DNA of 64,000 nt from Parcubacteria bacterium C7867-001 (GCA_001189095.1 LFCK01000002.1:131650-195649), one strand, 5' to 3'; positions 19,017 through 43,918 are shown, counted from the stretch's first letter. Numbers and translations: made by a program. The notes: a model not told the origin generated them from the sequence alone.

Positions 19017-19427
19017 ATGGCCACCATCAATCAGCTCTCAAAGAAGAGCCGCAAGAACAAAACGAGGAAATCAAAGACCCTCGCTCTTGGTCGTGGCTTC
19101 AATGCGCTCAAGAACCGCCCTACCTACTACGCAGCTCCGTTCAAGCGCGGCGTCTGCACGAAAGTGACCACCAAGACCCCTCGCAAGCCGAACTCGGCTA
19201 TTCGTAAGATCGCCCGCGTTCGCCTCACGAACGGCATGGAAGTCACCGCCTACATTCCGGGTGAAGGACACAACCTTCAGGAGCACTCAGTGGTCATGCT
19301 TCGTGGTGGCCGCGTGAAGGACATTGGCGTTCAGTACACCATCGTCCGCGGTCGCCTCGACACCGCAGGCATCGAGAAGCGCCGCCGTGGCCGCTCGCGC
19401 TATGGCGCTAAGAAGCCAAAGGCATAA
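19017..19427 (+). CDS. rpsL: 30S ribosomal protein S12
   Basis: PTINQL-type N-terminus, PKKPNSA and RGGRVKD motifs. Confidence 0.93.
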
Positions 19428-19439
19428 TTTTTCTAGACC

Positions 19440-19907
19440 ATGCGACGCCCAATAAAAAACAAGCACCCACGCCAGCCCGATCAGAAATTCAAGTCGGAAG
19501 CTATTTCGCGCTTCATCAACACCGTAATGCTCGACGGCAAGAAGGACACTGCACGCAAGGTCGTCTATGACGCACTTGATCTCCTTAAGAAGGAAGATGG
19601 CGTCGATCCGATCGAAGTCTTCGAGACCGCGATTCGCAACGTCTCGCCGGTGATGGAAGTCCGCTCCCGCCGTGTCGGTGGCGCTAACTATCAGGTTCCG
19701 CGCGAAGTTCCGCAGCAGCGCCGCACCAGCCTCGCGTATCGCTGGCTCATCAATGCTGCTCGCGCAAAGAAGGGAAAGCCGATGGCCGAGAAGCTCGCAA
19801 ACGAAATCCTCATGGCAGCAAAGAACGAAGGGGAAGCAATCAAGAAGAAGGACGACATGCACCGCATGGCAGACGCCAACAAGGCATTCGCTCACTTCGC
19901 TTGGTAA
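19440..19907 (+). CDS. rpsG: 30S ribosomal protein S7
   Basis: Conserved uS7 sequence; immediately downstream of rpsL. Confidence 0.93.
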   Translation: MRRPIKNKHPRQPDQKFKSEAISRFINTVMLDGKKDTARKVVYDALDLLKKEDGVDPIEVFETAIRNVSPVMEVRSRRVGGANYQVPREVPQQRRTSLAYRWLINAARAKKGKPMAEKLANEILMAAKNEGEAIKKKDDMHRMADANKAFAHFAW

Positions 19908-19924
19908 CCGGTTTTATAAAGCAA

Positions 19925-19958
19925 AGGAAAACGCGCCCCGTATGGGGCGCGTTTGCGT
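19925..19958. terminator. bidirectional terminator (AAACGCGCCCC-GTAT-GGGGCGCGTTT)
   Basis: Lies between rpsG (+) and a convergent minus-strand gene, where fusA would normally follow. Confidence 0.6.
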
Positions 19959-20249
19959 TCAGGACGTTGTTCTGCTGATTCGCAATAGGTTGGGAATATT
20001 CATTGTCTCAAATTCGTCGAGCACTTCTTGACCGGGGATATCATAGGACTCCCAAAAGTTCTGTTCCTCGTCGCGCAGAGAGAAAGTCAGAAGGCATGAG
20101 TACCATGGACCGCGCGGACGTGGATCCGCGTCGTTCTTCTCCATGAATCCTTGATTTTGAATAGCGCCAAAGAATTGCTTCGAGAGCGCTTTGTCTTCTG
20201 GGCGAAGTCCGAGCTCTCGGAATCGAGAAGCGAATTTACTTTCAGCCAT
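19959..20249 (-). CDS. hypothetical protein (96 aa)
   Basis: SD AAAGGAG 7 nt upstream of ATG. Confidence 0.45.
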   Translation of the reverse strand: MAESKFASRFRELGLRPEDKALSKQFFGAIQNQGFMEKNDADPRPRGPWYSCLLTFSLRDEEQNFWESYDIPGQEVLDEFETMNIPNLLRISRTTS

Positions 20250-20386
20250 GACTGGCTCCTTTCATCTGCCGCGGACTGTAGCATTCACAAGCATAAAAGA
20301 AAAACGCACTCATACGGCGCCGCTTTTCGTTTCGGGAAATCCGCGTATACTCGCGGGCAGGCTTTTGTTCCTAGGAGAGTTACCTC

Positions 20387-21157
20387 ATGCAGGTAGTCAA
20401 AGCATCAACCAAACTCTATCGAGACCGCGACCTTACCGCGCCTGTCGAGACGGAACTCCTCATCGGGGAAATTTTCGATGAGGACTACGTCGACTTCGGC
20501 TGGGTCCACGGAAAAGCGCGCCTTGATGGTTACCAAGGATACGTTCGTCTTCTCGATGTGCATCCCGGCGAGCGGACGACGACGCACCGCGTAAGCGCCG
20601 TGCGTACCATCGGATACGCTGCTCCGGATCTTAAATCGTCGGCCATCGAGTGGTTGTCCATCAACTCGCTCGGATGCATCGAGGAAGAAGTGAACGGCTT
20701 CACGCGGTTCAATGGTATCTGGGTACCGACGCAGCATATCGCGGCGCTCGATAAACCAACGCCGAACTATGTCGAAGTCGCTCGAGGATTCATCGGGACT
20801 CCGTATCTTTGGGGCGGGCGCGACGCCAATCACGGCGTCGATTGTTCCGGTCTCGTGCAGCAGGCATTGCTTGCGACCGGTCGCGTCGTTCCGCGAGACA
20901 GCGGACCGCAATCCGAAAGAATCGGCGTTCTCATCAATCCCGAAGGAGGCGACGGTATCGGCACGGGTGACTTCGTGTTCTGGAAGGGGCACGTCGGAAT
21001 CGTGACCGGTCTCGATGGTCGCGGCAATGACAGCCTTATTCATGCAACCGCAGATCATATGCGGGTCGTGGAAGAACCGCTCGAGCTTGTCATCAAGCGT
21101 CGAAGGGCTCAGGGCGGGGGAGAATCGCTCTGCTACCGGCGGATACTTCCGAAATGA
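20387..21157 (+). CDS. NlpC/P60 (C40) peptidase with N-terminal SH3b-like domain (YkfC/DPP6-like cell-wall endopeptidase)
   Basis: GTPYLWGG...GVDCSGLVQ (catalytic Cys), GDFVFW..GHVGIV (His) and IHA motifs. Confidence 0.85.
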   Translation: MQVVKASTKLYRDRDLTAPVETELLIGEIFDEDYVDFGWVHGKARLDGYQGYVRLLDVHPGERTTTHRVSAVRTIGYAAPDLKSSAIEWLSINSLGCIEEEVNGFTRFNGIWVPTQHIAALDKPTPNYVEVARGFIGTPYLWGGRDANHGVDCSGLVQQALLATGRVVPRDSGPQSERIGVLINPEGGDGIGTGDFVFWKGHVGIVTGLDGRGNDSLIHATADHMRVVEEPLELVIKRRRAQGGGESLCYRRILPK

Positions 21158-21194
21158 AAAACGGCGCCCCACAGGGGCGCCGTTATCTTTTTTG
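21157..21194. terminator. bidirectional terminator (AACGGCGCCCC-ACAG-GGGCGCCGTT ATCTTTTTT)
   Basis: GC stem plus T-run. Confidence 0.6.
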
Positions 21195-21203
21195 TGTGGC
21201 GTC

Positions 21204-21485
21204 TTACGCGAAGGCGATTCGCGTATAGCCGTTTGCGGAGAGATCATGACTCCCAGGTTTGAAGAGCCACTGCACGCCGTTGTAGGCGAACGTGACGATC
21301 CAGGGAATCGAGAAGAAGCAGGGTGCGCCTGGCAATCCGTTCAGGACTGTGAACACTTTGTTCTGTTCGGGCAGCGCTGCTTTTTCTTCTTTGGCTCGCT
21401 TGCTCATATGGACGCGCGGTGGCGCCTCCGTGAGTGGCTTGAAGCCCATCTCCTCGAGATTTCCAAAGTTCTTGAGTGCGGTCAT
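21204..21485 (-). CDS. hypothetical protein (93 aa)
   Basis: Weak SD GGAAGGGGA; sits between the NlpC/P60 gene and fusA. Confidence 0.35.
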   Translation of the reverse strand: MTALKNFGNLEEMGFKPLTEAPPRVHMSKRAKEEKAALPEQNKVFTVLNGLPGAPCFFSIPWIVTFAYNGVQWLFKPGSHDLSANGYTRIAFA

Positions 21486-21635
21486 TTCTATCCCCTTCCG
21501 CTAGTACCAATATGAACATTAACGTATTTTTAGCCACTTGTCCAGTTTCATGTCTCCAGCCTTTGCTTTTTGGGGGCTTTTTCCGTATCTTGTAGCTAAC
21601 GGCCCAAGGGGCTTTTTAATTTACTTACCTTATAT

Positions 21636-23783
21636 ATGAATCGAGATTATCCGCTAGATAAGGTTCGCAACTTCGGCATCGTCGCTCACGTGGACGCTGG
21701 TAAAACCACCACGTCTGAACGCGTGCTCTTCTACACTGGCTCCCAGCACAAAATCGGGGAAGTGCACGAGGGTGAGACCACGACCGACTGGATGGAGCAG
21801 GAGCGCGAGCGCGGCATCACCATCACGGCGGCTGCCATAACCTGCTTCTGGACCCGCACGTCCGAGAAAGACAAGAAGGACACGGCAAAGAAGTTCCGCT
21901 TCAATGTCATCGACACACCGGGACACATCGACTTCACCGCAGAAGTGAAGCGCTCCATGCGCGTGCTCGACGGCGCTATCGTCGTTTTCGACGGTGTCGC
22001 TGGCGTCGAACCGCAGTCGGAAACCAACTGGCGTTACGCTGACGAAGCGAACGTGCCGCGTGTCTGCTTCATCAACAAGCTCGATCGTACCGGTGCATCG
22101 TTCGAAGACTCCTACAAATCGATTCTCGACCGCCTCTCGAAGAAGGCCGTGCGCGCGCAGATCCCTATGGGTGCGGAAGGTGACTTCAAGGGTGTCGTCG
22201 ACCTCCTTTCCCGCAAGTCCTTCACCTTTGAAGGAAACATGGGTGAGAACGTCATCGAAGGCGAGGTTCCGGAAGAATTCAAAGCCGATATGGAGAAGTA
22301 TCGTGCTGAACTCGTGGAGCGCATCGTCTCCCAGGACGAAGCTGCAATGAATGCCTACCTCGAAGGAAACGAGCCGTCGCTCGAAGAGCTCAAAGCGCTT
22401 CTTCGCAAAGCGGTTATCGCAAACGAAATCTTTCCGGTCTACACCGGCTCGGCTCTTAAGAACAAGGGTGTGCAGCTCGTGCTCGACGCCGTCGTCGACT
22501 ACCTCCCAAGTCCGCTCGATCTTCCGCCGGTTACCGGCATCAATCCGAAGACCGATCAGCCAGTCGAACGTCAGGTTTCTGATGACGAGCCGTTCACCGC
22601 GCTCGCCTTCAAGCTCCAGACGGACCCGTTCGTCGGTGCACTGACCTTCTTCCGCGTATACGCAGGAACGGTCTCTGCCGGTTCCTATATTTACAACGCG
22701 AACACGGGCGCAAAGGAGCGCATTGGTCGCATCGTTCGTCTTCAGGCAGACAAGCGCGAAGAAGTGGAGAAAGTCTTCACCGGAGAAATCGCTGCATTCG
22801 TCGGCATGAAGGAAACGAAGACCTCGCATACGCTCTGCGACGAAGCGAATCCGATCATCCTCGAAGAAATTAAATTCCCTGAGCCAGTGGTGTCGCTTCG
22901 CATCGAGCCAGCTACCAAGGCCGATCAGGAGAAAATGGGTATCGCTATCCGCAAGCTCGCAGATGAAGACCCGACCTTCAAGGTGTCTTCGGACGAAGAG
23001 ACTGCCGAGACCATCATCTCGGGCATGGGTGAGCTTCACCTTGAAATTCTCGTTGATCGCATGAAGCGCGAGTTCAACGTCGTCGCAAATGTCGGTAAAC
23101 CACAGGTCGCCTACCGCGAAACCGTCATGGGTACTGCAGATGTCGAGAACAAGTACATCAAGCAGACGGGAGGTAAGGGTCAGTACGGCCACGTGAAGAT
23201 TAAACTCAAGCACCTCGAGCCAATTGATCCAGAAGCTAAGATCGCGAAGAACGTTACGCGCGAAGACCACTTCGAGTTCGTGAACAACATTAAGGGAGGT
23301 GTTATTCCGCAGGAATACATTCCAGCAGTGGAAAAGGGTATCCGCGAATCCCTCACCCGCGGTATTCTCGCTGGCTACCCAATAGTGGATGTGTCGGTGG
23401 ATCTCTACGACGGTTCGTACCACGATGTGGACTCGTCTGAAATCGCCTTCAAGATCGCTGCATCGCAGGCCTTCCAAGAAGCTGCCCAGAAAGCAAAGCC
23501 GGTCATTCTCGAACCGATCATGAAAGTCGAAGTCGTCGTTCCTGAGCAGTTCATGGGTGATATCACCGGTTCGCTCTCAGGAAAGCGCGGCGCTATCGAA
23601 GGCATGGAGGATCGCGGTATGAACAAGGCAATCAATGCCAAGGTGCCGCTCTCCGAAATGTTCGGGTACACCACGAGTCTTCGCTCGATGACCGAAGGTC
23701 GCGGTTCCATGACTATGGAATTCGATCACTACGAGGTCGTGCCAGCTAACGTAGCTAACGATATTATTGCTTCTCGTAAATAA
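21636..23783 (+). CDS. fusA: translation elongation factor G
   Basis: G1 AHVDAGKTT, DTPGHIDF, NKLD and all five EF-G domains. Confidence 0.95.
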   Translation: MNRDYPLDKVRNFGIVAHVDAGKTTTSERVLFYTGSQHKIGEVHEGETTTDWMEQERERGITITAAAITCFWTRTSEKDKKDTAKKFRFNVIDTPGHIDFTAEVKRSMRVLDGAIVVFDGVAGVEPQSETNWRYADEANVPRVCFINKLDRTGASFEDSYKSILDRLSKKAVRAQIPMGAEGDFKGVVDLLSRKSFTFEGNMGENVIEGEVPEEFKADMEKYRAELVERIVSQDEAAMNAYLEGNEPSLEELKALLRKAVIANEIFPVYTGSALKNKGVQLVLDAVVDYLPSPLDLPPVTGINPKTDQPVERQVSDDEPFTALAFKLQTDPFVGALTFFRVYAGTVSAGSYIYNANTGAKERIGRIVRLQADKREEVEKVFTGEIAAFVGMKETKTSHTLCDEANPIILEEIKFPEPVVSLRIEPATKADQEKMGIAIRKLADEDPTFKVSSDEETAETIISGMGELHLEILVDRMKREFNVVANVGKPQVAYRETVMGTADVENKYIKQTGGKGQYGHVKIKLKHLEPIDPEAKIAKNVTREDHFEFVNNIKGGVIPQEYIPAVEKGIRESLTRGILAGYPIVDVSVDLYDGSYHDVDSSEIAFKIAASQAFQEAAQKAKPVILEPIMKVEVVVPEQFMGDITGSLSGKRGAIEGMEDRGMNKAINAKVPLSEMFGYTTSLRSMTEGRGSMTMEFDHYEVVPANVANDIIASRK

Positions 23784-23795
23784 TTAAATCTCCCA

Positions 23796-23836
23796 AACAC
23801 AAAACCCGCGGCCAAAGGCCGCGGGTTTTGTGTTAT
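23796..23836 (+). terminator. intrinsic terminator (AAAACCCGCGGCC-AAA-GGCCGCGGGTTTTGTGTT)
   Basis: 13-bp stem plus T-rich tail directly after fusA. Confidence 0.65.
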
Positions 23837-23847: not shown

Positions 23848-24852
23848 ATGAAGGGACCCCTGTTGGTCATCGCTCTCGCACTCCTCATCGGTGTCGTTGC
23901 GGGTGCCGGATATCTCTACGTTACGTCGCAAAAAGCACCTGCCGGTCCGAATCTGATTGAGAATACGAACTCCTCTACGTCTTCGTCGACTAACTCGGTC
24001 GTTACTGAAAAAGAAAAACAGGGCACGTTGCTTATGAGTTACGGGAAAACACTTTTGCCCTCCATAGAAACTACGCTGCCAGTAGCACAAGGTTTGTGTG
24101 GTCTTGTCTACGGCAACTTCTGTGCATGGAATGGATCAGCTATTAAAGAGAAAACTTTTTATCTCTACGGAAGCAAGGATAAGCAGCCGAGTATCACCGT
24201 CTCACAGCCGTACCCAAAGACCGTTGTTCAGTACGGTCCCTCGGTGCCCATTCGCTTTACCGACGCCGGACCGACAGGTCCTCATCGCGTCTATCTGATT
24301 CATCGGAACCTCCTCGGGGAAGTGAATGAAGTCCATGAGGCACATATCGTGAGTGAAAGCGGAACAAGTGAGCTCACGCTCGTCTGGGACGGGAACGAGT
24401 CCTTGCTTAACGAACGCGGGTCGCTGGTCGTCCAGAAACTTCCCAAAGGGCACTACGAACTTGTTGTCGTGAATACCGCTACTGGAGTTGAGGGCGGCGT
24501 TTCCTCGTGGATACACACCATCGACTCTGCAAGCGACGTCGACAAGGTAACCGGAAGTTACATAAAACCGTATGCGCTCAACACGCCGCTCGTTAATTCT
24601 TACTGGGACGGTCGGGGCATTTTCTTTGATGGTGGGGGAGACGAAGACAACATCGGTCTCACGTTTAAGCGAAGCGAAATCGCTGTCTTCCGAGGCATTG
24701 ATGTGCCGGAGAAGGGTCAGCTAAACACGCTTGTATTCTTTCGTCGTCCCGACAACGTCGTTATCGTCACGGCCAATGTCGAAACTTTCCAATTTGCAGA
24801 CCAAAAACTGACCGTTGCGCAGCTGCTCCAGCAGATTGCCTCTGGAAAATAA
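23848..24852 (+). CDS. hypothetical exported or membrane-anchored protein (N-terminal TM/signal anchor, about 335 aa)
   Basis: Hydrophobic N-terminus MKGPLLVIALALLIGVVAGAG; no recognisable domain. Confidence 0.5.
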   Translation: MKGPLLVIALALLIGVVAGAGYLYVTSQKAPAGPNLIENTNSSTSSSTNSVVTEKEKQGTLLMSYGKTLLPSIETTLPVAQGLCGLVYGNFCAWNGSAIKEKTFYLYGSKDKQPSITVSQPYPKTVVQYGPSVPIRFTDAGPTGPHRVYLIHRNLLGEVNEVHEAHIVSESGTSELTLVWDGNESLLNERGSLVVQKLPKGHYELVVVNTATGVEGGVSSWIHTIDSASDVDKVTGSYIKPYALNTPLVNSYWDGRGIFFDGGGDEDNIGLTFKRSEIAVFRGIDVPEKGQLNTLVFFRRPDNVVIVTANVETFQFADQKLTVAQLLQQIASGK

Positions 24853-24854
24853 AA

Positions 24855-24885
24855 TATCCCCGCACACCTTTGGTGTGCGGGGCAG
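24855..24885. terminator. bidirectional terminator (CCCCGCACACC-TTTG-GTGTGCGGGG)
   Basis: Perfect hairpin between convergent ORFs. Confidence 0.5.
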
Positions 24886-24888
24886 TCC

Positions 24889-25050
24889 TTAAATAAGGTA
24901 GAACCAGCGGAGCAGAAAGAGCCCGATGACAAAGGTGCCGATCGCGCCGTAGAGTGCGTGGCGCAAAAGCTCCATACACTCTTCGCGGGTGAACCCTTTG
25001 CGTGGCTGCATCGGGAGCGGTTCGCCTCGCCGGTATTCCATGGGTCGCAT
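24889..25050 (-). CDS. 53-aa small membrane protein (MRPMEYRRGEPLPMQPRKGFTREECMELLRHALYGAIGTFVIGLFLLRWFYLI)
   Basis: Perfect SD GAGGAGGTG 5 nt upstream of ATG; C-terminal TM helix; absent from the ORF track because under 60 aa. Confidence 0.4.
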   Translation of the reverse strand: MRPMEYRRGEPLPMQPRKGFTREECMELLRHALYGAIGTFVIGLFLLRWFYLI

Positions 25051-25164
25051 GAGACACCTCCTCTCTCCTTAGTGAAATAAATTGTGACCTATCTGTCAAT
25101 TTCCCCTCGCTTTTTTCCCGAGGAGGAGTACGCTTACTACTAGTTGGGAAAGAAAGGGCTTCGC

Positions 25165-25629
25165 ATGACAGTCATGGAATCCGGAGACCTTCTCGAGGTC
25201 TTTGAACGTTATCTGGAAGCTTCCGACATTGAGCACGACCGTCTCTCCGACGATTCGCTCATTACGCCCGCGCCCGGTTTCCTTGTCCAAGATGCCATGC
25301 GCATCGTGCAGGGAGACGAGGACGAGTGCCTCATCCTCGGCATACAAATTTCGCCGTCCGACTTCGGATATGCGGAATTGAGTGCGCTCCTTCAAAGGCT
25401 CAATTCTTGCCTCACTGGCGAAGTTGAGGCGGGAGAGGAGGGTATTTTCTGGGCTATGCCGGTGGCACCGCCCCAAAATCAGGAAGCGTATGAGGAGATT
25501 CTCGAGCTCGCAAGCCGCGACCTCGTCCTCATCGAAATGTTCATGCTGCTCTATGATGCGTGGGGCGATCGCTACACGTTTGAAGAGCACCTCCTGAAGT
25601 GCATGCAGCCGGTCATCGGCTACTGCTAA
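25165..25629 (+). CDS. acidic hypothetical protein (about 154 aa)
   Basis: SD-like GAAAGG upstream of ATG; highly acidic composition; hairpin terminator downstream. Confidence 0.4.
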   Translation: MTVMESGDLLEVFERYLEASDIEHDRLSDDSLITPAPGFLVQDAMRIVQGDEDECLILGIQISPSDFGYAELSALLQRLNSCLTGEVEAGEEGIFWAMPVAPPQNQEAYEEILELASRDLVLIEMFMLLYDAWGDRYTFEEHLLKCMQPVIGYC

Positions 25630-25871
25630 AAATCTACCGCGCCCCGTAGGGGCGCGGTACCGTGTTCATACCTATTGACCTTTTATACGTGCGCCTGTAC
25701 GTTATAGCTAACGCGGATTGGCGCTCTTTTTATTCGACTCCACGGCATTCTGCCGGCAGGGGTGTGGTAAAAGGCGTTTCGCGGGTGGGCACAACCAGCA
25801 AGCGCCTTTTATCTTTTAGATAGTAAGGAGCATTCGCTTATCAATTTAGGTTATCGATAACTTACAAACGT

Positions 25872-35886: not shown

Positions 35887-36153
35887 ATGGAAACCACCAC
35901 TCCTCGCCCCCAGAGCTTCCGCGGAACCGTCGTTAAGACGGCCATGAAGGACACGGCTACCGTGCTCGTGTCTCGCTACGTGAAGCACCCGAAGTACAAG
36001 AAGTACCGCACCCTTTCAAAGAAGTACCTCGTCCACGATGAGGGAAACACGGCGAAAGTAGGGGATGAGGTCACGATTGTTGCGTGCCGCCCGATAAGCA
36101 AGCTCAAGCGCTTCAAACTCGCGTCGACCCAGAAGTCGGCATCTGCTGAATAA
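35887..36153 (+). CDS. rpsQ: 30S ribosomal protein S17
   Basis: uS17 OB-fold sequence (GTVVKTAMKDTATV...). Confidence 0.9.
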   Translation: METTTPRPQSFRGTVVKTAMKDTATVLVSRYVKHPKYKKYRTLSKKYLVHDEGNTAKVGDEVTIVACRPISKLKRFKLASTQKSASAE

Positions 36154-36158
36154 TATTT

Positions 36159-36536: not shown

Positions 36537-36542
36537 ACTCCT

Positions 36543-36836
36543 ATGAACTCCCGAATGAAAAAGCAGAAGAATGCAAAAGGTAAGCCGCGCCGCAGCTATG
36601 TAGCGCCGGTGGCTATCAAGATGCACGTTAAGAAGGGCGACAAGGTGAAGGTCCTTTCTGGCAAGGATAAGGGCAAGACCGGCACTATCCTTCGCGCGCT
36701 TCCGAAAGAGAATCGCGTCATCATCGAAGGCGTCGGCATGGTGAAGCGCCATACGCGCGCAAAGGCCGGACAGTCGAGCCGCATCATCGAAGTGGCACGC
36801 TCTATCCATGCGTCGAACGTCGTAAAGACTGCGTAA
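36543..36836 (+). CDS. rplX: 50S ribosomal protein L24
   Basis: KOW motif [22 protein letters not shown]. Confidence 0.9.
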
Positions 36837-36847
36837 CGAATATTTTT

Positions 36848-37381
36848 ATGATGCTTTCAAAACAAAAACAGCAGACCGCCTTCGAAGCGCTTTCCGAATC
36901 GCAGGGCTACACCAACCGCATGGCGGCTCCCCGCATCATGAAGGTTATTGTGTCGTCAGGTGTTGGTAAGAAGCGTGACAAGAACCAGCTCGCGCTCGTT
37001 GAGGATCGCCTTACCCGCATCACCGGCCAGAAGCCGTCGGCTCGTCCGGCAAAAGCGTCTATCGCACAGTTCAAGATGCGCGAGGGCGACATTGTCGGTT
37101 TTCAGGTGACCATGCGCGGTGGTCGCATGTACGACTTCCTCGATAAGCTCATCCACATCGCGCTTCCGCGCACACGCGACTTCCGCGGCATCAACACGAG
37201 TGCCGTCGATGATATGGGCAACCTCACCATCGGACTCCGCGAGAACACCATTTTCCCAGAGACCGCAGACGAAGACCTTAAGGACGTGTTCGGTCTTGCT
37301 GTCACGGTCGTTACGACCGCGAAGACGAAGGAAGAAGCACTCGCATTCTTCCGCCACTTGGGGATACCATTTCAGGCCTAA
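36848..37381 (+). CDS. rplE: 50S ribosomal protein L5
   Basis: uL5 core (NRMAAPRIMKVIV..., FRGI). Confidence 0.93.
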   Translation: MMLSKQKQQTAFEALSESQGYTNRMAAPRIMKVIVSSGVGKKRDKNQLALVEDRLTRITGQKPSARPAKASIAQFKMREGDIVGFQVTMRGGRMYDFLDKLIHIALPRTRDFRGINTSAVDDMGNLTIGLRENTIFPETADEDLKDVFGLAVTVVTTAKTKEEALAFFRHLGIPFQA

Positions 37382-37393
37382 GCTAGGCCACCG

Positions 37394-37432
37394 TTTGAAA
37401 ACGCGGCGCCGTAAGGCGCCGCGTTTTCGCTT
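37394..37432 (+). terminator. intrinsic terminator (AAAACGCGGCGCC-GTAA-GGCGCCGCGTTTTCGC)
   Basis: Sits where rpsN would normally follow rplE. Confidence 0.6.
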
Positions 37433-37495: not shown

Positions 37496-37921
37496 ATGAG
37501 GGTACTGCTGGTAGCGTTCGCGTGCTGCATCGGGTATGCCCCGTTCGCAGCTGCGCAAACGAACGATCTTTCGATAGAAGTTGCAATCGACGTGCCGAAA
37601 ATCGCGACCGTCGATCCTGACCCGATCAAGCTCAAAATCGATGTCGGGTACGAACGGCGCACGCCGGACAACGAGAAGGAATGGTATCTCGAGGAGCGGC
37701 GCCCAAGCTTCATCGGACCGCAAACCGAATACCTCGCCATCTCGGCTCCGGTCTGGAAACCGTCCGAAAATACCGAGGTGAAGGCGTGGCGCATCAGCAC
37801 CAAGGCGCGCGGGGACCCGTTCCCGTACGAGAACCTCAGGATTCCTGATGGCTCGCCCGACGTGCTTGGCCGTGTGGAGGAGAAGTCCTTCTACGGCATC
37901 AGCTTCACGTGGCGGCACTGA
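37496..37921 (+). CDS. small secreted hypothetical protein (141 aa; signal peptide MRVLLVAFACCIGYAPFAAAQ)
   Basis: SD GGGAGGAAG before ATG; cleavable signal peptide; hairpin terminator downstream. Confidence 0.55.
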   Translation: MRVLLVAFACCIGYAPFAAAQTNDLSIEVAIDVPKIATVDPDPIKLKIDVGYERRTPDNEKEWYLEERRPSFIGPQTEYLAISAPVWKPSENTEVKAWRISTKARGDPFPYENLRIPDGSPDVLGRVEEKSFYGISFTWRH

Positions 37922-37926
37922 AAACT

Positions 37927-37956
37927 GGCCCAGCGCATAGCGCTGGGCCGCCCTTA
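37927..37956 (+). terminator. intrinsic terminator (GGCCCAGCGC-ATAG-CGCTGGGCC GCCCTTATTTTG)
   Basis: 10-bp stem plus T-rich tail. Confidence 0.5.
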
Positions 37957-37988: not shown

Positions 37989-38017
37989 TTGACAGGGCGT
38001 CTCCTAATTGATAGATT
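37989..38017 (+). promoter_or_regulatory. sigma70-like promoter for rpsN: TTGACA-17 nt-TAGATT
   Basis: Consensus -35 and acceptable -10, about 30 nt before the rpsN ATG. Confidence 0.5.
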
Positions 38018-38045
38018 ACGGGGACGCGAAAGCGGCTTTTTATTT

Positions 38046-38315
38046 ATGGCAAAACGCTCTCAATTGGCCCGAAATGCAAAACGAGTAAAGCTCGTGGCGC
38101 GTTTTGCTGCCAAGCGAGCAGCCCTCAAGGAGGCAGGGGATGCAGAGGGGCTCCAGAAGCTCCCACGCAACTCGAGCCCGACCCGCGTCAAGAACCGCTG
38201 CTCGATCTCAGGACGTGGTCGCGGCTATCTCCGCGCCTTCGGCCTCTCCCGCATCCAGTTCCGCGAGCTCGTCCGCGAGGGTAAGATTCCGGGCGTTAAG
38301 AAAGCCTCTTGGTAA
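38046..38315 (+). CDS. rpsN: 30S ribosomal protein S14 (long, non-zinc form, 89 aa)
   Basis: [17 protein letters not shown]... C-terminus [27 protein letters not shown]; start is internal to the longer ORF. Confidence 0.9.
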
Positions 38316-38322
38316 TTTTCGT

Positions 38323-38715
38323 ATGGTAAGCGACCGTGTCGGCGATTTCATAATTCGGCTCAAGAATGCCGGTGCAATAGGCGCAAAAAACGTTGCGCTT
38401 CCTCATTCGGCATATCTTGAATCTATTGCAAAGAAGCTTAAGGAGCTCGGTTTCGTTGCTGATGTCGACACTGAAAAGAAGGATCAGAAAGAGCTCGTGG
38501 TCACGCTTGCGTACGCGCAGAATGGTGAGCACAAGATTCACGATGTGAAGCGCATCAGCAAGCCGGGTCGCCGTCTCTACGCTCATGCGCGTGAAGCACA
38601 TACGGTGAAGAACGGCATGGGCGCACGCATCCTTTCAACTCCAAAGGGTATCCTTTCGGACAAGGAAGCACGCAGGGAGCACACGGGTGGCGAAAACCTG
38701 TTTGAAATTTGGTAA
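38323..38715 (+). CDS. rpsH: 30S ribosomal protein S8
   Basis: MVSDRVGDFIIRLKNAG N-terminus; start is internal to the longer ORF. Confidence 0.9.
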   Translation: MVSDRVGDFIIRLKNAGAIGAKNVALPHSAYLESIAKKLKELGFVADVDTEKKDQKELVVTLAYAQNGEHKIHDVKRISKPGRRLYAHAREAHTVKNGMGARILSTPKGILSDKEARREHTGGENLFEIW

Positions 38716-38721
38716 TTACGT

Positions 38722-39258
38722 ATGAGCAGCCGCCTCGCCAAAAAGCCGATCGAGATACCGAAGAACGTCACCGTCACTGCGGCTGATGGAACGCTTTCGG
38801 TGAAGGGTGCAAAGGCAACTCTTACCCGCACGTTTCATTCTTCGGTCGCTATCACGGTTGAGCCAGAAGGTGTCGTTATAAAAGCGAAGAATACGTCGCG
38901 CCTCGCACACGCCCTCACTGGCACGTTCGCTGCACACGTAAAGGCGATGATTCAGGGCGTTGAGACTCCGTTCAAGAAGGTCCTCCAGCTTAACGGCGTC
39001 GGTTACAAGGTCGAACTCAAGGGCACGGACCTCGTGTTCGCTGTTGGTTTCTCACACCCCGTTACGCTTTCTATTCCTGAAGGCATCACCGCAACGGTCG
39101 TCAAGAACGTGATTACCGTCGAGGGTCCTGATAAGCATGCGGTCGGCCAGTTCGCCGCAAACGTTCGTGCCGTAAAGAAGCCGGAGCCGTATCTCGGAAA
39201 GGGAATCAAGTACGAGGACGAAGTCATCCGCCGCAAGCAGGGCAAGAAGGCCGTCTAA
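38722..39258 (+). CDS. rplF: 50S ribosomal protein L6
   Basis: SRLAKKPIEIPKNVTV N-terminus and two uL6 repeats. Confidence 0.92.
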   Translation: MSSRLAKKPIEIPKNVTVTAADGTLSVKGAKATLTRTFHSSVAITVEPEGVVIKAKNTSRLAHALTGTFAAHVKAMIQGVETPFKKVLQLNGVGYKVELKGTDLVFAVGFSHPVTLSIPEGITATVVKNVITVEGPDKHAVGQFAANVRAVKKPEPYLGKGIKYEDEVIRRKQGKKAV

Positions 39259-39269
39259 TATTTTTTCGT

Positions 39270-39620
39270 ATGCCACGCACTATCGCTTCAAAAAACGACG
39301 CCCGCATCATCCGCCATCGCCGCATCCGCGCGAAGGTGAAGGGAACCGCTGCACGCCCACGTCTCGCGGTGTTCCGCAGCAATCGTTTCGTATCCGTTCA
39401 GCTCATCGACGACGAGGCAGGGAAGACCCTCGCACAGGCGCATGGTCGCGAGTTCCCCGGTGCGCTTTCAGTACAGGCAAAAGCAATCGGTGAGGCAATC
39501 GCAGAACGCGCAAAGAAGGCTGGCATTACTACGGTCGTCTTCGATCGCGGTGGATATCAGTACGCAGCGCAGGTTAAGTCGCTTGCGGACGCAGCGCGCG
39601 CTGGTGGGCTCACCTTCTAA
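39270..39620 (+). CDS. rplR: 50S ribosomal protein L18
   Basis: RHRRIRAKVKGTAARPRLAVFRSNR motif. Confidence 0.9.
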   Translation: MPRTIASKNDARIIRHRRIRAKVKGTAARPRLAVFRSNRFVSVQLIDDEAGKTLAQAHGREFPGALSVQAKAIGEAIAERAKKAGITTVVFDRGGYQYAAQVKSLADAARAGGLTF

Positions 39621-39625
39621 ATGGT

Positions 39626-40234
39626 ATGACTGACACTATGACTCTCACGGAGAACGAAGCACCGGCAGCAGCAGAGCCGGTAGCGACAGAAGCGGTTGCA
39701 GCTCCTCAGGAAGTTGCTGCACCGCAGCGCTCAGAAGACAATCGTGGCCGCCGCCCACAGCGCGGTGGACGTTCTCCTCGTCCGCGACAGGGTCGCGAAC
39801 GCGAACGCAGCGAATTCGATCAGGCAACGCTCGACGTGCGCCGTGTGGCTCGCGTTATGGCCGGTGGTCGCCGCTTCTCGTTCAGCGTGACGGTTGTCAT
39901 TGGCGATCGAAAGGGTCGTGTCGGTGTCGGACTCGGTAAGGGTGCGGATACCGCACTTGCTATCGACAAGGCTGTTCGCGATGCCCGCCGCCACCTCATC
40001 ACCGTTCCGCTTAAGGACGGCTCCATCGCTCACGAAATTTCCGCGAAGTACGCATCTTCGACGCTCACCATTATGCCTTCTCCGGGTCGCGGTCTCGTTG
40101 CTGGTTCAGCAGTGCGCACCGTCCTCGAGTATGCAGGCATCGGAAATGTCGTCTCGAAGATTCTTACTCGCACGAAGAACAAGCTCACCATCGCTCGCGC
40201 AACGGTGGAGGCGCTTAAGACGCTTTCCGCGTAA
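39626..40234 (+). CDS. rpsE: 30S ribosomal protein S5 (with about 55-aa Ala/Pro/Arg-rich N-terminal extension)
   Basis: uS5 dsRBD and C-terminal domain (GRRFSFSVTVVIGD..., GRGLVAGSAVRTVLE). Confidence 0.9.
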   Translation: MTDTMTLTENEAPAAAEPVATEAVAAPQEVAAPQRSEDNRGRRPQRGGRSPRPRQGRERERSEFDQATLDVRRVARVMAGGRRFSFSVTVVIGDRKGRVGVGLGKGADTALAIDKAVRDARRHLITVPLKDGSIAHEISAKYASSTLTIMPSPGRGLVAGSAVRTVLEYAGIGNVVSKILTRTKNKLTIARATVEALKTLSA

Positions 40235-40239
40235 TTTGT

Positions 40240-40689
40240 ATGCAGAAAAACACTCTCGCTCCGAAGACTACCCGCATGAAGAGTCCGCGCATTGGTCGCG
40301 GTGGTAAGCGCGGCAAGACCTCTGGTCGCGGTACCAAAGGTCAGAATGCGCGCGCCGGCCATCGTAAGCGCCCTGAGATGCGCGATCTCATCAAGAAGAT
40401 TCCGAAGCTTCGTGGTCATGGTAAGAACCGTGCTCGCACGGTCCGCGTCGATCGTCTCGTCTACGTCCCTGTTTCTCTTGCAAAGCTCGAGGCTGCATTT
40501 TCAGCAGGGGACACCGTAACGTCGGCAACGCTCCTCAAGAAGGGTGTGTTGAAGGCAGTCTCTGGTCGCGCTCCACGAGCAAAAATACTTGGTTCAGAGG
40601 GTCTCACTAAGTCGCTTTCGGTCTCCGGTCTTGCGGCGTCAGCATCGGCGAAGAAAGCTATCGAAGCCGCTGGCGGCTCGCTTGCCTAA
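40240..40689 (+). CDS. rplO: 50S ribosomal protein L15; follows rpsE directly with no rpmD (L30) between them
   Basis: GRGGKRGKTSGRGTKGQ motif. Confidence 0.9.
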   Translation: MQKNTLAPKTTRMKSPRIGRGGKRGKTSGRGTKGQNARAGHRKRPEMRDLIKKIPKLRGHGKNRARTVRVDRLVYVPVSLAKLEAAFSAGDTVTSATLLKKGVLKAVSGRAPRAKILGSEGLTKSLSVSGLAASASAKKAIEAAGGSLA

Positions 40690-40690
40690 G

Positions 40691-41971
40691 ATGTCTCCGA
40701 TCTCGACCTTCTTCCATAAGCTCAAGCTCGTCTTCACGGATTCAGCGATTCGTAACCGCCTTCTATTCGTCGCAGCTGCGTTCGTCGTCTTCCGCTTTTT
40801 GTCCGCGGTTCCCATTCCGGGCATCGACCATTTCGCGCTCGAGCAATTCTTTTCGAATAATCAATTCTTCGGCCTCCTCTCGATTTTCTCGGGCGGCGGT
40901 TTTGCGCAGCTCTCTATCGTGATGCTCGGCGTCGGTCCCTACATCACCGCGTCCATCATCATGCAGCTCGCAACCGTCATCTCATCGAAGGTGAAGGCGA
41001 TGTACACGGAAGAAGGAGAGGCAGGACGCACGAAGTTCATCGCGCTTTCTCGTACCATCACCATCCCACTCGCCATTCTTCAGGGTGTTGCGTTCCTCTC
41101 GCTTCTTGAGAGTCAGGGAATTATCACGAGCCTCACGCCGTTCGCGTTTGCTGTGAACGTCTTCCTTATCGCGGCCGGTTCGATGCTTCTCATGTGGATG
41201 GGCGAACTCATGACCGAATTTGGTATCGGCAACGGCGTTTCCCTCATTATCTTTGCGGGAATCATCTCAGGTCTTCCTGCAGGTATTTCCCAGACTATTT
41301 TCACCGCGACAGCGGCAGATATTCCGGCATACCTCGGATTCTTCATCCTCGCGCTCGCTGCTATTTACGCGGTCATCATGGTTTCCGAAGCTGAGCGTTC
41401 GATTCCTATCGCCTACGCGCGTCAGGTCCGTGGTGCCGCTGCAGCTACTGGCGCAGCAACCTATCTCCCGATCCGTCTTCTTCAGGCTGGCGTGATTCCT
41501 ATTATCTTCGCGCTCTCACTCCTCCTTCTTCCGCAGATGGCGCTTGCAGGCCTCTCGGCTATTGGGGTTCAGGGTATATCCGGTGTTGTCTCCGCATACA
41601 CGGCCTTTACGAACAATCCATGGGCACACAGCGCGGTTTACTTCGTGCTTGTGGTTATCTTCACGTATTTCTACACCTCTATTACCTTCGAACCGCATCG
41701 CGTCGCCGATAACCTTCAGAAGTCGGGTGCATTCATTCCGGGTGTTCGTCCGGGTCGCGAGACCGAAGCCTACATTGGTAATGTGGTGAATCGCGTCACC
41801 CTTCCGGGCGCAGTCTTCCTCGGTGCGATCGCGGTCGTTCCGTTCGTTGTGCAGGGTATTACCGGCATCACCGCGATTCTGGTCGGCGGTACGGCACTTC
41901 TCATCGCGGTCACGGTACTCCTCGACCTCATCCGAAAAATAGACGCACAGATTTCGCTCCGCGAATACTAG
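40691..41971 (+). CDS. secY: preprotein translocase subunit SecY
   Basis: 10-TM protein with SecY signature; start taken at MSPISTFF, not the upstream in-frame Met overlapping rplO. Confidence 0.93.
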   Translation: MSPISTFFHKLKLVFTDSAIRNRLLFVAAAFVVFRFLSAVPIPGIDHFALEQFFSNNQFFGLLSIFSGGGFAQLSIVMLGVGPYITASIIMQLATVISSKVKAMYTEEGEAGRTKFIALSRTITIPLAILQGVAFLSLLESQGIITSLTPFAFAVNVFLIAAGSMLLMWMGELMTEFGIGNGVSLIIFAGIISGLPAGISQTIFTATAADIPAYLGFFILALAAIYAVIMVSEAERSIPIAYARQVRGAAAATGAATYLPIRLLQAGVIPIIFALSLLLLPQMALAGLSAIGVQGISGVVSAYTAFTNNPWAHSAVYFVLVVIFTYFYTSITFEPHRVADNLQKSGAFIPGVRPGRETEAYIGNVVNRVTLPGAVFLGAIAVVPFVVQGITGITAILVGGTALLIAVTVLLDLIRKIDAQISLREY

Positions 41972-42002
41972 AAAAAGCCGGCCACACGCCGGTTTTTTCA
42001 TT
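41970..42002 (+). terminator. intrinsic terminator (AAAAAGCCGGC-CACAC-GCCGGTTTTTT)
   Basis: Hairpin plus T-run after secY. Confidence 0.6.
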
Positions 42003-42019
42003 TATGCTAGATTAATCAC

Positions 42020-42598
42020 ATGACTGACACACCCAAGACCGTTTTCTTCATCGGTAAGCCGGGCTCCGGAAAGGGGACTCAGGCGAAGCTTCTCGCAGCC
42101 AAGACGGGCTGGACCATCCTTGCCTCAGGCGCCCAGTTTCGAGAGATAGCGAAGGAAGAGAGCTTGCTTGGTCGGAAAGTTGAAGAAGCGCTTGCACAGG
42201 GTCTCCTCATGCCGCACTGGTTCGCGATGTATCTCTATCAGCGCGCGCTCTTTTCCGTGCCGGAGGACCAGAGCATTGTCTTCGATGGTTTCAATCGTAA
42301 GCTTGCGGAAGCGGAACTCAACATCGCAACGCTCGAGTGGCTCGGACGTCCGTTCGTGGTACTCAATATTCAGGTATCGGACGAGCATGTAAAGGAGCGT
42401 CTCGCTGAGCGAGCGAAGACCTCCGGCCGTTCGGACGATCGTCAGGATGCCTTCGACGAGCGCCTCGATGAATACCGTGCACATACCACGCAGTCCATCG
42501 ACCTCTTCCGCGAGAAGCACTCACTCATTGATATTAATGGCGAACAGACGCCGGAGGAAGTCTTTGCGGATATCTGCAAAGCGCTCAATTTAGAATGA
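42020..42598 (+). CDS. adk: adenylate kinase (short form, no zinc lid)
   Basis: GKPGSGKGTQ P-loop, NMP-binding and short LID regions. Confidence 0.9.
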   Translation: MTDTPKTVFFIGKPGSGKGTQAKLLAAKTGWTILASGAQFREIAKEESLLGRKVEEALAQGLLMPHWFAMYLYQRALFSVPEDQSIVFDGFNRKLAEAELNIATLEWLGRPFVVLNIQVSDEHVKERLAERAKTSGRSDDRQDAFDERLDEYRAHTTQSIDLFREKHSLIDINGEQTPEEVFADICKALNLE

Positions 42599-43365
42599 TT
42601 GCACGCACTACCGAAGAGAAAGAGGGAATTACTGAGTCGGGTCGCCGGCTCGGTGCGGTACTTGCGGAGCTGCGTCGACATGTTGCGCCGGGTGTTTCCA
42701 CGAAAGAACTCGATGACATCGCGGAAAAGATGATTCTCGAAGGCGGCGACCTACCAGCGTTCAAAGGATATACACCGGAAGGCGCACCACGCCCCTATCC
42801 GGCAGCACTGTGCCTTTCCGTGAATGATGAGGTGGTTCACGGCATTCCGAACGAGCAGCCAAAAACTCTGAAGGAAGGCGATATCGTCTCACTCGACCTC
42901 GGTCTCATACATAAAGGGTTCGTATCAGACGCCGCTATTACCGTCGGTGTCGGCGCAGTTTCGAAGGAGGCACAGGAACTCATGAACACCACTGAAAATG
43001 CGCTTGCGGCGGGAATCGCTGCAGCGAAGGTTGGTGGGCGCGTGGGCGACATTTCTCATGCGATAGAGCAAGAATATAAGGGTACGAAGTTCTCAATCGT
43101 AAAAGTGCTGGGCGGCCACGGCGTGGGCGGTCATGTTCACGAAGAGCCGTTCGTCGCTAATTTCGGCCACGCGGGAACCGGCGAGGAGCTCGTTGAGGGT
43201 ATGGTACTCGCGCTCGAACCGATTGCGACAGCAGGCAAGGGAACGGTGACGATTGCCGCAGACGGCTATACGTATCGCACGAAGGACGGCTCCATCGCTG
43301 CGCATTTCGAGCACACCATTCTCATCGAGAAGGATGGCGCACGGGTTCTTACGGAAGTAGCGTAA
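42595..43365 (+). CDS. map: type I methionine aminopeptidase
   Basis: Pita-bread fold metal ligands (D..D..H..E..E pattern); 4-nt overlap with adk. Confidence 0.9.
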   Translation: MIARTTEEKEGITESGRRLGAVLAELRRHVAPGVSTKELDDIAEKMILEGGDLPAFKGYTPEGAPRPYPAALCLSVNDEVVHGIPNEQPKTLKEGDIVSLDLGLIHKGFVSDAAITVGVGAVSKEAQELMNTTENALAAGIAAAKVGGRVGDISHAIEQEYKGTKFSIVKVLGGHGVGGHVHEEPFVANFGHAGTGEELVEGMVLALEPIATAGKGTVTIAADGYTYRTKDGSIAAHFEHTILIEKDGARVLTEVA

Positions 43366-43406
43366 TCATCGTGCCTGCGCTATAGTGCCCCCATTAGCCG
43401 CGAGGC

Positions 43407-43436
43407 CCTGCCTGCCGGTAGGCAGGATTTTTTATT
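43407..43436 (+). terminator. intrinsic terminator (CCTGCC-TGCCGGTA-GGCAGG ATTTTTTATTT)
   Basis: Hairpin plus strong T-run after map. Confidence 0.55.
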
Positions 43437-43441
43437 TCTGT

Positions 43442-43918
43442 ATGGCACATCCAAAAGAAGAGAAGACGCTTATCATCCTCAAGCCAGACGCGGTTCACCG
43501 CGGCTTTCTAGGAGAGGTCGTTACGCGCTTCGAGCGCAAAGGTCTCAAGATTATCGGCATGAAGATGATGCAACTCGAGGACGCGGCGCTTGAGGCCCAC
43601 TACGCGCACATCAAGGATAAGCCGTTCTTCGGCGGCATCAAGAACTTCATGAAAGATGCTCCGGTCGTCGTCATGGCGCTCTCTGGGATTAATGCCGTTT
43701 CCGCGACCCGCGTCATCGTAGGTCCTACGAATGGCGCTGAGGCTCCTGCAGGCACCATCCGCGGCGATTTCTCGCTCTCCATTCAGTCGAATCTCGTCCA
43801 CGCTTCGGATAGCGTTGATGGAGGTATTGAGGAAGTAAGCCGTTTCTTTGCGGAGAATGAGCTCTTCGACTACAAGCGAAACGACTTCAACTATATCCAC
43901 GCCGACGAGGCGTTTTAG
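43442..43918 (+). CDS. ndk: nucleoside diphosphate kinase
   Basis: ERTLIILKPD-type N-terminus, active-site His in NLVHASDS context; start at MAHPKEEKT. Confidence 0.9.
   Translation: MAHPKEEKTLIILKPDAVHRGFLGEVVTRFERKGLKIIGMKMMQLEDAALEAHYAHIKDKPFFGGIKNFMKDAPVVVMALSGINAVSATRVIVGPTNGAEAPAGTIRGDFSLSIQSNLVHASDSVDGGIEEVSRFFAENELFDYKRNDFNYIHADEAF

Follow-up and report, generated by a model that had tools for sequence, protein, structure and literature searches.

Is the interrupted str-S10-spc ribosomal protein (r-protein) cluster of Parcubacteria bacterium C7867-001 an intact array into which foreign genes were recently inserted, or a chain of units that are separate throughout its lineage? We addressed this question in a stretch of 64,000 nucleotides (LFCK01000002.1:131650-195649), referred to here as the window, in which the cluster lies at 19-44 kb. 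An earlier sequence-only reading of the window had proposed at least six foreign insertions, each with its own terminator and expressed alongside the ribosome, and rewired control of r-protein synthesis. Our results make it probable that the cluster is a chain of independent units that meet at clade-wide seams with variable cargo, and that the rplC block is under the control of a leader of its own.

C7867-001 is an ultra-small bacterium represented by a metagenome-assembled genome (MAG) from groundwater of the Hanford site, with a total size of 812 kb and 53% GC (PMC4508563). The main text of PMC4508563 does not discuss ribosomal gene order, and 'ribosomal protein' has 0 occurrences in it. The proteins of the window matched KND51303-KND51331, encoded on a 281-kb scaffold, by exact sequence. 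The genome is a member of the Patescibacteria, or Candidate Phyla Radiation (CPR). Its nearest L3 relatives in public genomes and metagenomes were all Patescibacteria/CPR (Paceibacterota, Kaiser-, Nomura-, Taylorbacteria and similar), with L3 identity to the window of at most 60% in GTDB representatives and at most 75% in metagenome contigs. Neither the fragmentation of the cluster nor the rplC leader was found described in a literature search, which was limited to the searchable literature and is no proof of novelty.

Junctions opened in related genomes

The cluster has the order rpsL-rpsG, fusA, tuf-rpsJ, rplC-rplB, rpsS-rplE, rpsN-secY, adk-map, ndk. Pfam confirmed all named ribosomal and translation genes; adk and map were identified from their translations and position only. 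All r-protein genes lie on one strand, and the gene order is the same as in 160 related loci. Translation, inspection of Shine-Dalgarno (SD) sites and a codon-usage score gave 13 non-ribosomal open reading frames (ORFs) at five junctions, with 0.5-2.4 kb per junction. The gene order and intervening ORFs of the sequence-only reading, including the physical separation of S10 from L3-L4, were borne out almost gene for gene by Pfam, translation, strands and positions. Its count of insertions was too high: there are five sites, and at the sixth break, 3' of map, the cluster simply stops.

The 160 loci were taken around L3 homologues (80 GTDB species representatives and 80 metagenome loci), and window proteins were mapped on them by tblastn. 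A junction was scored as open when the gap exceeded 400 bp, and GTDB-labelled CPR loci were compared with non-CPR controls (Chloroflexi, Actinobacteria, Firmicutes). The rplB/rpsS junction was open in 28 of 34 CPR loci and 1 of 33 controls, fusA/tuf in 16 of 20 vs. 2 of 16, rplE/rpsN in 12 of 19 vs. 0 of 24, rpsJ/rplC in 10 of 37 vs. 1 of 37, and rpsG/fusA in 4 of 16 vs. 1 of 16. Junctions within blocks were open in 0 to 2 CPR loci each. The controls broke mainly at tuf/rpsJ (12/23). The closest relative, locus L130 (L3 75% identical), had gaps at 4 of the 5 junctions, with cargo different from that of the window. These findings demonstrate that the unit boundaries are clade-wide, in the sense of the L3-nearest CPR lineages (Paceibacteria-like). 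The sequence-only reading had left it to such a comparison to tell which insertions are lineage-specific; the interrupted order is largely the norm in the wider clade. The inserts, on the other hand, did not prove to be r-protein paralogs.

An assembly or binning artefact, i.e., a chimeric MAG scaffold that mimics insertions, is scarcely credible. The source is admittedly a MAG from 2015 with 8- to 42-fold coverage. However, the exact proteins occur on 3-4 contigs from several sources, the 281-kb scaffold has a near-identical 280-kb contig, the same architecture recurs in many independent assemblies, and composition is uniform.

Rearranged clusters were observed in two Elulimicrobiales-like loci, where a full-length rpsL (68% identical) directly followed rplB (L013 11704-13441; L107 11657-12938). 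In L013, rpsN came after rpsL and the rpsS-rplE block was gone from there; in L107, r-protein genes beyond rpsL went undetected. It follows that the blocks are relocated whole.

Contents of the gaps

Gap contents turn over, and in the window they are mostly orphan small or envelope proteins. Among 393 ORFs in CPR gaps, 294 were singletons. Recurring gap families were mutually unrelated: PKD/CARDB surface proteins, pyrD-pyrE-pyrF, IS200-like Y1 transposase and diacylglycerol kinase. Further recurring families were a PaaX/Cas2-like protein, histidine kinase and aspartyl protease. The pyrD-pyrE-pyrF cassette was seen at different seams: fusA/tuf in L133 (5097-7600, Pfam-tested), L135 and L139, and rplB/rpsS in L014. 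The transposase was seen in the rplB/rpsS gap of five loci (L022 15756-16445, Pfam-tested; L028, L093, L116 and one more). In each of these two families, a single member was tested with Pfam.

One module has kept its place. In the window, the rplB/rpsS gap holds two adjacent genes on the opposite strand. The first, i4a, gave a weak RyR (PF02026) match of 20.3 bits vs. a cutoff of 27.4; 4 of 20 members of its family matched at E<=1e-3, and the family keeps the signature HExW...PYxxLxExEKExDR. The second, i4b, encodes a DUF3298/PdaC-like membrane protein (PF11738, RsiV-type extracellular domain, 3.8e-15, 57 bits vs. a cutoff of 24.1; the PdaC match was weak) with an N-terminal hydrophobic segment by hydropathy. 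An exhaustive HMMER search revealed i4a homologues between rplB and rpsS, on the opposite strand and beside a DUF3298 gene, in L162/L163 and L164/L165, which are independent assemblies with L3 67-71% identical to that of the window. DUF3298 alone lay between rplB and rpsS in L130 and L002. Because it occupies the same place in independent assemblies, the RyR-like plus DUF3298 module has long been resident and did not arrive recently. The pair spans 31457-32994 in the window, 1714-3598 in L162 and 4619-6690 in L164; in the latter two loci, a membrane protein of ~100 aa is encoded between the two genes.

The remaining inserts gave little by homology. The NlpC/P60 gene of insert 1 matched PF00877 (1.7e-12, 47.7 bits vs. 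a cutoff of 23), with an SH3_16 match near threshold; NCBI names it 'NLP/P60 family lipoprotein' and its neighbour i1a 'hypothetical protein'. Apart from NlpC/P60, DUF3298/PdaC and the weak RyR match, Pfam revealed no family in the inserts, and PHROGs and PADLOC gave no match for the ten hypothetical insert ORFs; i2a, i2b and i2c of insert 2 thus lacked a match in all three. Hydropathy analysis indicated an N-terminal transmembrane (TM) segment in i2a, which would make it membrane-anchored, and a TM segment in i2b; i2c is acidic. Each of orfA, orfB and orfC has a GGAGG-type SD, and the orfB product is rich in Cys in its core and in RGG at its C-terminus. Small rpsJ/rplC ORFs of L130, L081, L082, L162 and L164 were considered as diverged homologues of orfA-C and rejected, as no similarity was detected by phmmer (E<=10) or pairwise BLASTP.

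These data bear on the word 'foreign'. It might be supposed that mobile or foreign DNA recently entered an otherwise intact cluster in this lineage, in six or more events and each time with a terminator. In favour of this, most of the inserted ORFs are orphans: 12 of the 14 insert ORF candidates had no tblastn match in the 160 loci (i4b matched, and i4a homologues were found only in other loci searched later), and orfB had no homologue outside its own 90% cluster among 5.8 billion proteins. The transposases in the rplB/rpsS gap of five relatives show that mobile elements do land there, and the inserts use SD sites, which the first genes of the r-protein blocks do not. We nevertheless regard recent horizontal insertion as quite unlikely. 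The same junctions are open clade-wide with differing cargo, and are open in most related CPR loci. No integrase, transposase, phage gene or recombinase was detected in the window inserts by Pfam, PHROGs or PADLOC. A search for insertion scars in the form of flanking direct repeats gave only chance-level repeats, which lay within coding sequence; no tRNA adjoins the inserts, the sole tRNA of the window being at 59.4 kb. Insert GC was 0.49-0.60, compared with 0.56 in the r-protein blocks and 0.549 over the whole window, GC at third codon positions was similar, and codon bias was normal. The i4a plus DUF3298 module is syntenic in lineages with L3 67-75% identical, and the hairpins belong to the general terminator type of the genome. 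The inserts are better described as variable cargo of conserved seams than as recent foreign genes.

A second question is whether the inserts serve the ribosome, as lineage-specific ribosome-associated factors or as substitutes for lost r-proteins that are kept for co-expression. Their position inside an r-protein cluster invites this idea; CPR lack L30 (no rpmD here), so that novel ribosome partners are conceivable, the composition of orfB would fit, and the position of the i4a/DUF3298 pair is kept across genera. We consider it very improbable all the same, since 6 of the 13 ORFs run counter to the r-protein genes, TM or signal-like segments were seen in four, the NlpC/P60 and DUF3298/PdaC families belong to the cell envelope, and conservation of the rpsJ/rplC ORFs does not reach even the nearest relatives. 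The claim that inserts are expressed alongside the ribosome is not supported, given the same strand count; same-strand ORFs are bracketed, and would be insulated, by hairpins and have SD sites of their own.

Hairpins and promoter-like sites

Perfect GC-rich hairpins of 8-18 bp were found in the gaps 3' of rpsG, NlpC, fusA, i2a/i2b, i2c, rpsJ, orfA, orfB, rplB, i4c2, rplE, i5, secY, map and ndk. Within 19-44 kb, every one of the 15 perfect hairpins with 8 bp or more falls between genes. Terminator-like sites numbered 41 vs. 23.2 +/- 4.4 in shuffles, i.e., about twice expectation. As 30 of the 37 such hairpins of the whole 64-kb window also fall between genes, and 15 are located away from the cluster, they represent the general terminator type of the genome and are not special to inserts. 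A GC-rich stem-loop followed by a U tract was present 3' of NlpC, fusA, rpsJ, orfA, orfB, rplB, i4c2, rplE, secY, map and ndk. On the plus strand, the U tract was weak or absent after rpsG, i2a, i2c and orfC, and the hairpin after orfC was itself weak. The intrinsic terminators that the sequence-only reading had placed at block ends therefore find a terminator-like hairpin 3' of rpsG, fusA, rpsJ, rplB, rplE, secY and map, with a weak plus-strand T tail after rpsG. Its statement that every insert brings a terminator applies to nearly every gap as regards hairpins, but i2a and i2c lack a plus-strand T tract and orfC is weak.

Promoter-like hexamer pairs were not in excess (7 vs. 8.5 +/- 2.8 by chance). 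Of the pairs previously proposed before rplC and rpsN, the rplC pair is conserved in position in relatives; as a count, the pairs do not rise above chance. The pair TTGACA-17-TAGATT is identical before rpsS and rpsN. Upstream of rpsS, at least 10 CPR loci have a TTGACn-17-TAYAWT pair followed by a CCCGC...GCGGG hairpin and a U run (UUUU); the hairpin and U run were seen in L130, L025, L087, L033, L138, L002, L037, L122, L109 and L041. In the window, a short GC hairpin with a U run lies between a promoter-like site and the start codon at 18987-19003, 21601-21613 and 33801-33818. Such an element of block leaders may be a 5' stabiliser against RNase J, or an attenuator. The tuf leader has a hairpin AGGCG...CGCGGG...CGCCUU (window 25740-25800) in common with L130, L081 and L082, and more distant CPR loci have a CUCGCGC motif 5' of tuf; this leader, too, may be particular to the clade, as a second one of its kind. 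The shared elements upstream of rpsS, rpsN and tuf would support block-wise transcription.

Start contexts were also distinctive. By SD flag, AGGAG/GGAGG is present in 11 of the 13 insert ORFs (all but i4a and i4b). The first block genes rpsL, fusA, rplC and rpsS, and the NlpC gene, were seen without an SD and with a U-rich stretch containing UUACCU 2-12 nt before AUG (19004-19016, 21620-21635, 28784-28794, 33840-33858 and, for NlpC, 20372-20386); the NlpC gene has both the SD flag and the U-rich stretch. The start contexts of tuf and rplD are nearly identical (AUAAYUUACAnACGUAUGGCU, family D19).

From these boundaries we infer that rpsL-rpsG, fusA, tuf-rpsJ, rplC-rplB, rpsS-rplE and rpsN-secY are separate transcription units. 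Because each unit appears to end in a terminator-like hairpin and to restart at its own promoter-like site, unrelated genes could settle in the gaps as in neutral slots, on either strand, and leave r-protein expression undisturbed. Block-specific control would then replace operon-wide control, most clearly at rplC.

A conserved leader upstream of rplC

The rplC leader came to light when the 130 nt 5' of rplC were compared across all loci. In 5' to 3' order, it comprises a predicted extended promoter TTGCAY-17-(TG)TATAGT, a spacer of ~10 nt, a motif in which CGCUACGU and ACCAAUGGC flank a stem-loop, a variable hairpin, and a GC-rich hairpin with a U tract. The leader is ~95 nt long; in the window, the ATG is at 28795 and the whole element with promoter spans 28663-28789. 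In most leaders of this type (type A), the U tract ends 9-18 nt before the ATG. In type-B leaders (L025, L033, L038, L109, L117, L121, L132), the hairpin of the conserved motif, termed P1, lies 1-3 nt from the ATG and there is no terminator.

The structure proposed for P1 has an internal loop C / CAA between an outer stem of 4 bp and an inner stem of 7 bp or more. P1 was 88.6% paired over 27 sequences; when the 3' partner was slid, pairing was 13-43%. Six pairs change on both sides, e.g., the third inner pair from C-G to U-A and the fourth from C-G to G-C. The internal loop and its closing pairs are invariant across loci whose L3 proteins are 47-75% identical, while the stems covary, which points to specific recognition of P1. 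A covariance model (R1) built from the P1 alignment scored 36.7 bits on the window P1 (E 7.8e-8). In 2.1 Mb searched on both strands, it gave 33 matches at E<=0.0034, each of which lies immediately 5' of rplC on the + strand; four came from outside the seed. Borderline matches were one upstream of rplC in L125, also outside the seed (E=0.023), and a single off-target match (E=0.024). R1 also matched upstream of rplC in L162 and L164, loci from an unrelated retrieval, giving 35 loci in all. The leader goes with the split: of 22 loci with an rpsJ/rplC gap >400 nt, 14 had it, as against 0 of 36 loci in which rplC directly adjoins rpsJ. Three loci have an insertion inside P1 with conserved GCCCRAUAGGCU (L028 246-291, L116 9916-9961, L085 68-113), which may be an extra protein contact.

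Rfam 15 contained no family that matched the rplC leader at gathering score or E<=10 in the window, L122 and nine leader-bearing loci. Across the cluster, at gathering and permissive E-values, Rfam gave no r-protein leader and only generic terminator-like noise matches. The rplC leader is thus a conserved structured 5' untranslated element specific to the rplC operon, and is apparently undescribed so far.

Proposed control of the rplC block

On the model of the S10 leader of E. coli, the rplC leader is most likely an autoregulatory attenuator of the L3-L4-L23-L2 block. One block product (L3, L4, L23 or L2), when in excess over rRNA, would bind and lock P1. In type A, locked P1 would let the terminator form, resulting in attenuation; in type B, it would occlude the start site, resulting in translational repression. 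When P1 is not locked, its 3' strand (CCAAUGG) could act as antiterminator in about half of the leaders by pairing with the 5' arm and loop of the terminator (CCAUUG or CUGUUG). One sensor on two expression platforms, terminator and start codon, is typical of genuine cis-regulators.

Folding predictions were consistent with such a switch. Computed for the native sequences only, seven leaders (L130, L082, L122, L016, L138, L091, L147) have two folds within 0.1-2.6 kcal/mol. Fold 1 is P1 plus terminator; in fold 2, the P1 3' strand CCAAUGGC pairs with the terminator 5' arm and loop (GCCAUUG or GCUGUUG), and in several of the seven the P1 5' strand also pairs with the terminator 3' arm. As modelled, these paired alternatives are a classical terminator/antiterminator switch.

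Several points weigh against this reading of the leader and against the picture of independent units as a whole. Near-isoenergetic alternative folds are not rare in random RNA. A scripted search gave a full 6-bp antiterminator partner in 8 of 21 leaders, with a mean z vs. shuffles of -0.99, and CYRUUG within the terminator hairpin was counted by eye in ~12 of 21. In the window, the CCAAUGG strand has a competing partner, UUGUUGG, in the variable hairpin. The P1 score was reached by 0 of 500 shuffles, but kinship among the sequences inflates such statistics. In E. coli 16S and 23S rRNA, the only rRNAs compared, covariance model and structure-aware pattern revealed no mimic of P1. As to the units, a terminator-like hairpin right after the upstream r-protein gene was present at ~1/4 to 1/3 of the gapped junctions of relatives; the terminators, promoters and attenuator are predictions; and the loci were chosen by L3 similarity, so that 'clade-wide' does not extend to all CPR.

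Two loose rRNA echoes were set aside: 23S 442-457 GACCGAUAGUGAAC vs. type-B GACCAAUAGACAAC, and 16S 1220-1245 GCUAC...CAAUGGC. They were not relied on because their paired partners are absent.

The leader hairpins might instead be generic 5' stabilisers or translation-initiation structures, with the U run as an S1-type landing site for non-SD initiation and P1 as a shield of the 5' end from RNase J. The rpsL, fusA and rpsS leaders, which are simpler and suit this reading, likewise have a promoter-like site, short GC hairpin, U run and AUG; first genes of blocks lack an SD; an RNase J-like Beta-CASP/RMMBL gene is present (44475-45848); and about half of the leaders lack the antiterminator pairing. 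We judge this explanation rather unlikely, because the P1 loop stays invariant and the stems covary at L3 identity as low as 47%, the P1 motif was found only at rplC, and the use of one P1 on two platforms is typical of ligand- or protein-sensing leaders. Feedback control by a block product remains our preferred reading, and the rplC leader is a credible addition to the class of r-protein leaders.

Gene map and neighbouring genes

Coordinates of the blocks, inserts and leader elements are given in Table 1. The L30 gene (rpmD) is absent from the cluster, as the spacing between rpsE and rplO is only 5 nt. Downstream, ndk and an RNase J-like gene occupy the place where infA, rpmJ and the alpha operon usually follow map. 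This Beta-CASP/RMMBL gene lies on the + strand just 3' of the cluster, and it is followed by an infC-rpmI-rplT operon on the opposite strand (46063-47172); the alpha-operon genes are therefore not here.

Table 1. Positions of cluster blocks, inserted ORFs and rplC leader elements, counted from the first letter of the window.
Feature	Position	Strand	Components	Evidence or remark
Block 1	19017-19907	+	rpsL 19017-19427, rpsG 19440-19907	Pfam S12, S7
rpsG/i1a hairpin	19929-19954	.	between convergent genes	T tail good on minus strand, weak on plus
Insert 1	19959-21485		i1a 96 aa (-) 19959-20249; NlpC/P60+SH3 (+) 20387-21157; bidirectional hairpin 21160-21184; i1c 93 aa (-) 21204-21485	
Block 2	21636-23834	+	fusA 21636-23783; terminator-like hairpin 23796-23834 (18 bp)	Pfam EF-G domains
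Insert 2	23863-25659		i2a 329 aa (+) 23863-24852; hairpin 24858-24882; i2b 53 aa (-) 24889-25050; i2c 154 aa (+) 25165-25629; hairpin 25635-25659	
Block 3	25872-27499	+	tuf 25872-27068, rpsJ 27091-27450; terminator-like hairpin 27472-27499	Pfam S10; NCBI name EF-Tu
Insert 3	27548-28542	+	orfA 70 aa 27548-27760; hairpin 27775-27800; orfB 99 aa 27867-28166; hairpin 28172-28198; orfC 96 aa 28252-28542	
rplC promoter-like pair	28663-28691	+	TTGCAC-17-TATAGT	TTGCAT-17-(TG)TATAGT at same position in relatives
P1 hairpin	28699-28733	+	outer stem 28701-28704/28728-28731; internal loop C28705 / C28725-A28727; inner stem 28706-28712/28718-28724	
Variable hairpin of rplC leader	~28739-28756	+		
Terminator-like hairpin of rplC leader	28762-28789	+	CGCGCUGUUGUACAGCGCG 28762-28780 + U6, 14 nt before ATG	candidate attenuator
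Block 4	28795-31450	+	rplC 28795-29427, rplD, rplW, rplB (end 31415); bidirectional hairpin 31415-31450	Pfam L3, L4, L23, L2
Insert 4	31457-33630	-	i4a RyR-like 219 aa 31457-32116; i4b 276 aa 32164-32994; hairpin 33035-33057; i4c2 188 aa 33064-33630	
Block 5	33684-37428	+	promoter-like TTGACA-17-TAGATT 33684-33712; 146-nt leader; rpsS-rplE 33859-37381; hairpin 37397-37428	Pfam
Insert 5	37496-37950	+	i5 141 aa, signal-like N-terminus; hairpin 37926-37950	
Block 6	37989-41999	+	promoter-like TTGACA-17-TAGATT 37989-38017; rpsN-secY 38046-41971 (without rpmD); hairpin 41971-41999	Pfam
adk-map and ndk	42020-44109	+	adk-map 42020-43365; hairpin 43407-43426; ndk 43442-43918; hairpin 44074-44109	Pfam NDK; cluster end

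Other genes for translation in the window, all on the minus strand, are rpmB (L28; 14790-15035), a full-length tmRNA gene at 56020-56437 (Rfam RF00023, 98.8 bits; unreported by ARAGORN), and a tRNA-Ile with anticodon UAU at 59393-59467 (ARAGORN; Rfam tRNA 71 bits). The UAU anticodon is unusual for tRNA-Ile in bacteria, in which AUA is normally read by a lysidine-modified CAU tRNA.

Discussion

The rplC leader shares its setting with the S10 leader of E. coli. Both are 5' leaders of an operon encoding L3-L4-L23-L2, have an upstream hairpin and then a terminator hairpin before the first gene, and presumably respond to an operon product in transcriptional and translational versions. They differ in that the CPR leader precedes rplC rather than rpsJ, because S10 was split off with tuf, is found only in a subset of CPR lineages, and resembles no known leader in sequence or by Rfam. 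The E. coli leader controlled by L4 is a narrow enterobacterial/gammaproteobacterial feature and is not general in bacteria. The loss of E. coli-type L4 control, on which the sequence-only reading had based its idea of rewired control, is therefore a weak argument; that idea finds better ground in the rplC block, where phylogenetic evidence points to a separate promoter and a regulatory leader. The r-protein leaders in Rfam (L10, L13, L19, L20, L21, S15, L4-Archaeoglobi, L2-Alphaproteobacteria and others) resemble the rplC leader in being small structured 5' untranslated regions of one operon in one clade, with covarying stems and a conserved loop, but no Rfam 15 model matches it. To our knowledge, no r-protein leader is known for Patescibacteria.

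In archaea, S12-S7-EF2-EF1alpha-S10 are encoded apart from L3-L4-L23-L2-S19 and the genes that follow. The cluster described here likewise keeps S10 with the EF-Tu/EF-1alpha gene and separate from the L3-led block. It is, however, that of a bacterium, has the extra breaks rplB/rpsS, rplE/rpsN and fusA/tuf, and holds variable cargo in its gaps. The genes, their relative order and their orientation are those of the canonical bacterial str-S10-spc cluster (PMC8046335, Gammaproteobacteria and Bacilli), whereas the array is interrupted at five internal junctions, lacks L30, and is not continued by the alpha-operon genes after map. The fragmentation is a variant of known gene-order plasticity. More tentatively, and at somewhat less than even odds in our estimate, a Patescibacteria lineage split its S10 operon at rpsJ/rplC and evolved a new class of r-protein-sensing leader (C/CAA P1 on two platforms). 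On the same tentative view, the ribosomal supercluster of CPR would consist of autonomous modules, and orphan and envelope genes that evolve fast would find landing pads or nurseries at its five conserved seams throughout the clade.

CPR phylogenomics and MAG quality checks are built on the 16 syntenic r-protein genes of this cluster, whose order is often cited as a textbook case of extreme conservation. That the cluster is routinely opened at five fixed seams in Parcubacteria-type CPR changes the reading of contig-level synteny. The split cluster is also a natural system for asking which co-transcription links among r-protein genes are really needed. In a phylum with essentially no characterised gene regulation, the rplC leader offers a concrete candidate for feedback by r-proteins that can be put to the test, and it could join RNA family libraries. 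Finally, seam cargo is rich in secreted and membrane proteins and orphans, which makes the seams a convenient place to seek the host-interaction genes of episymbionts.

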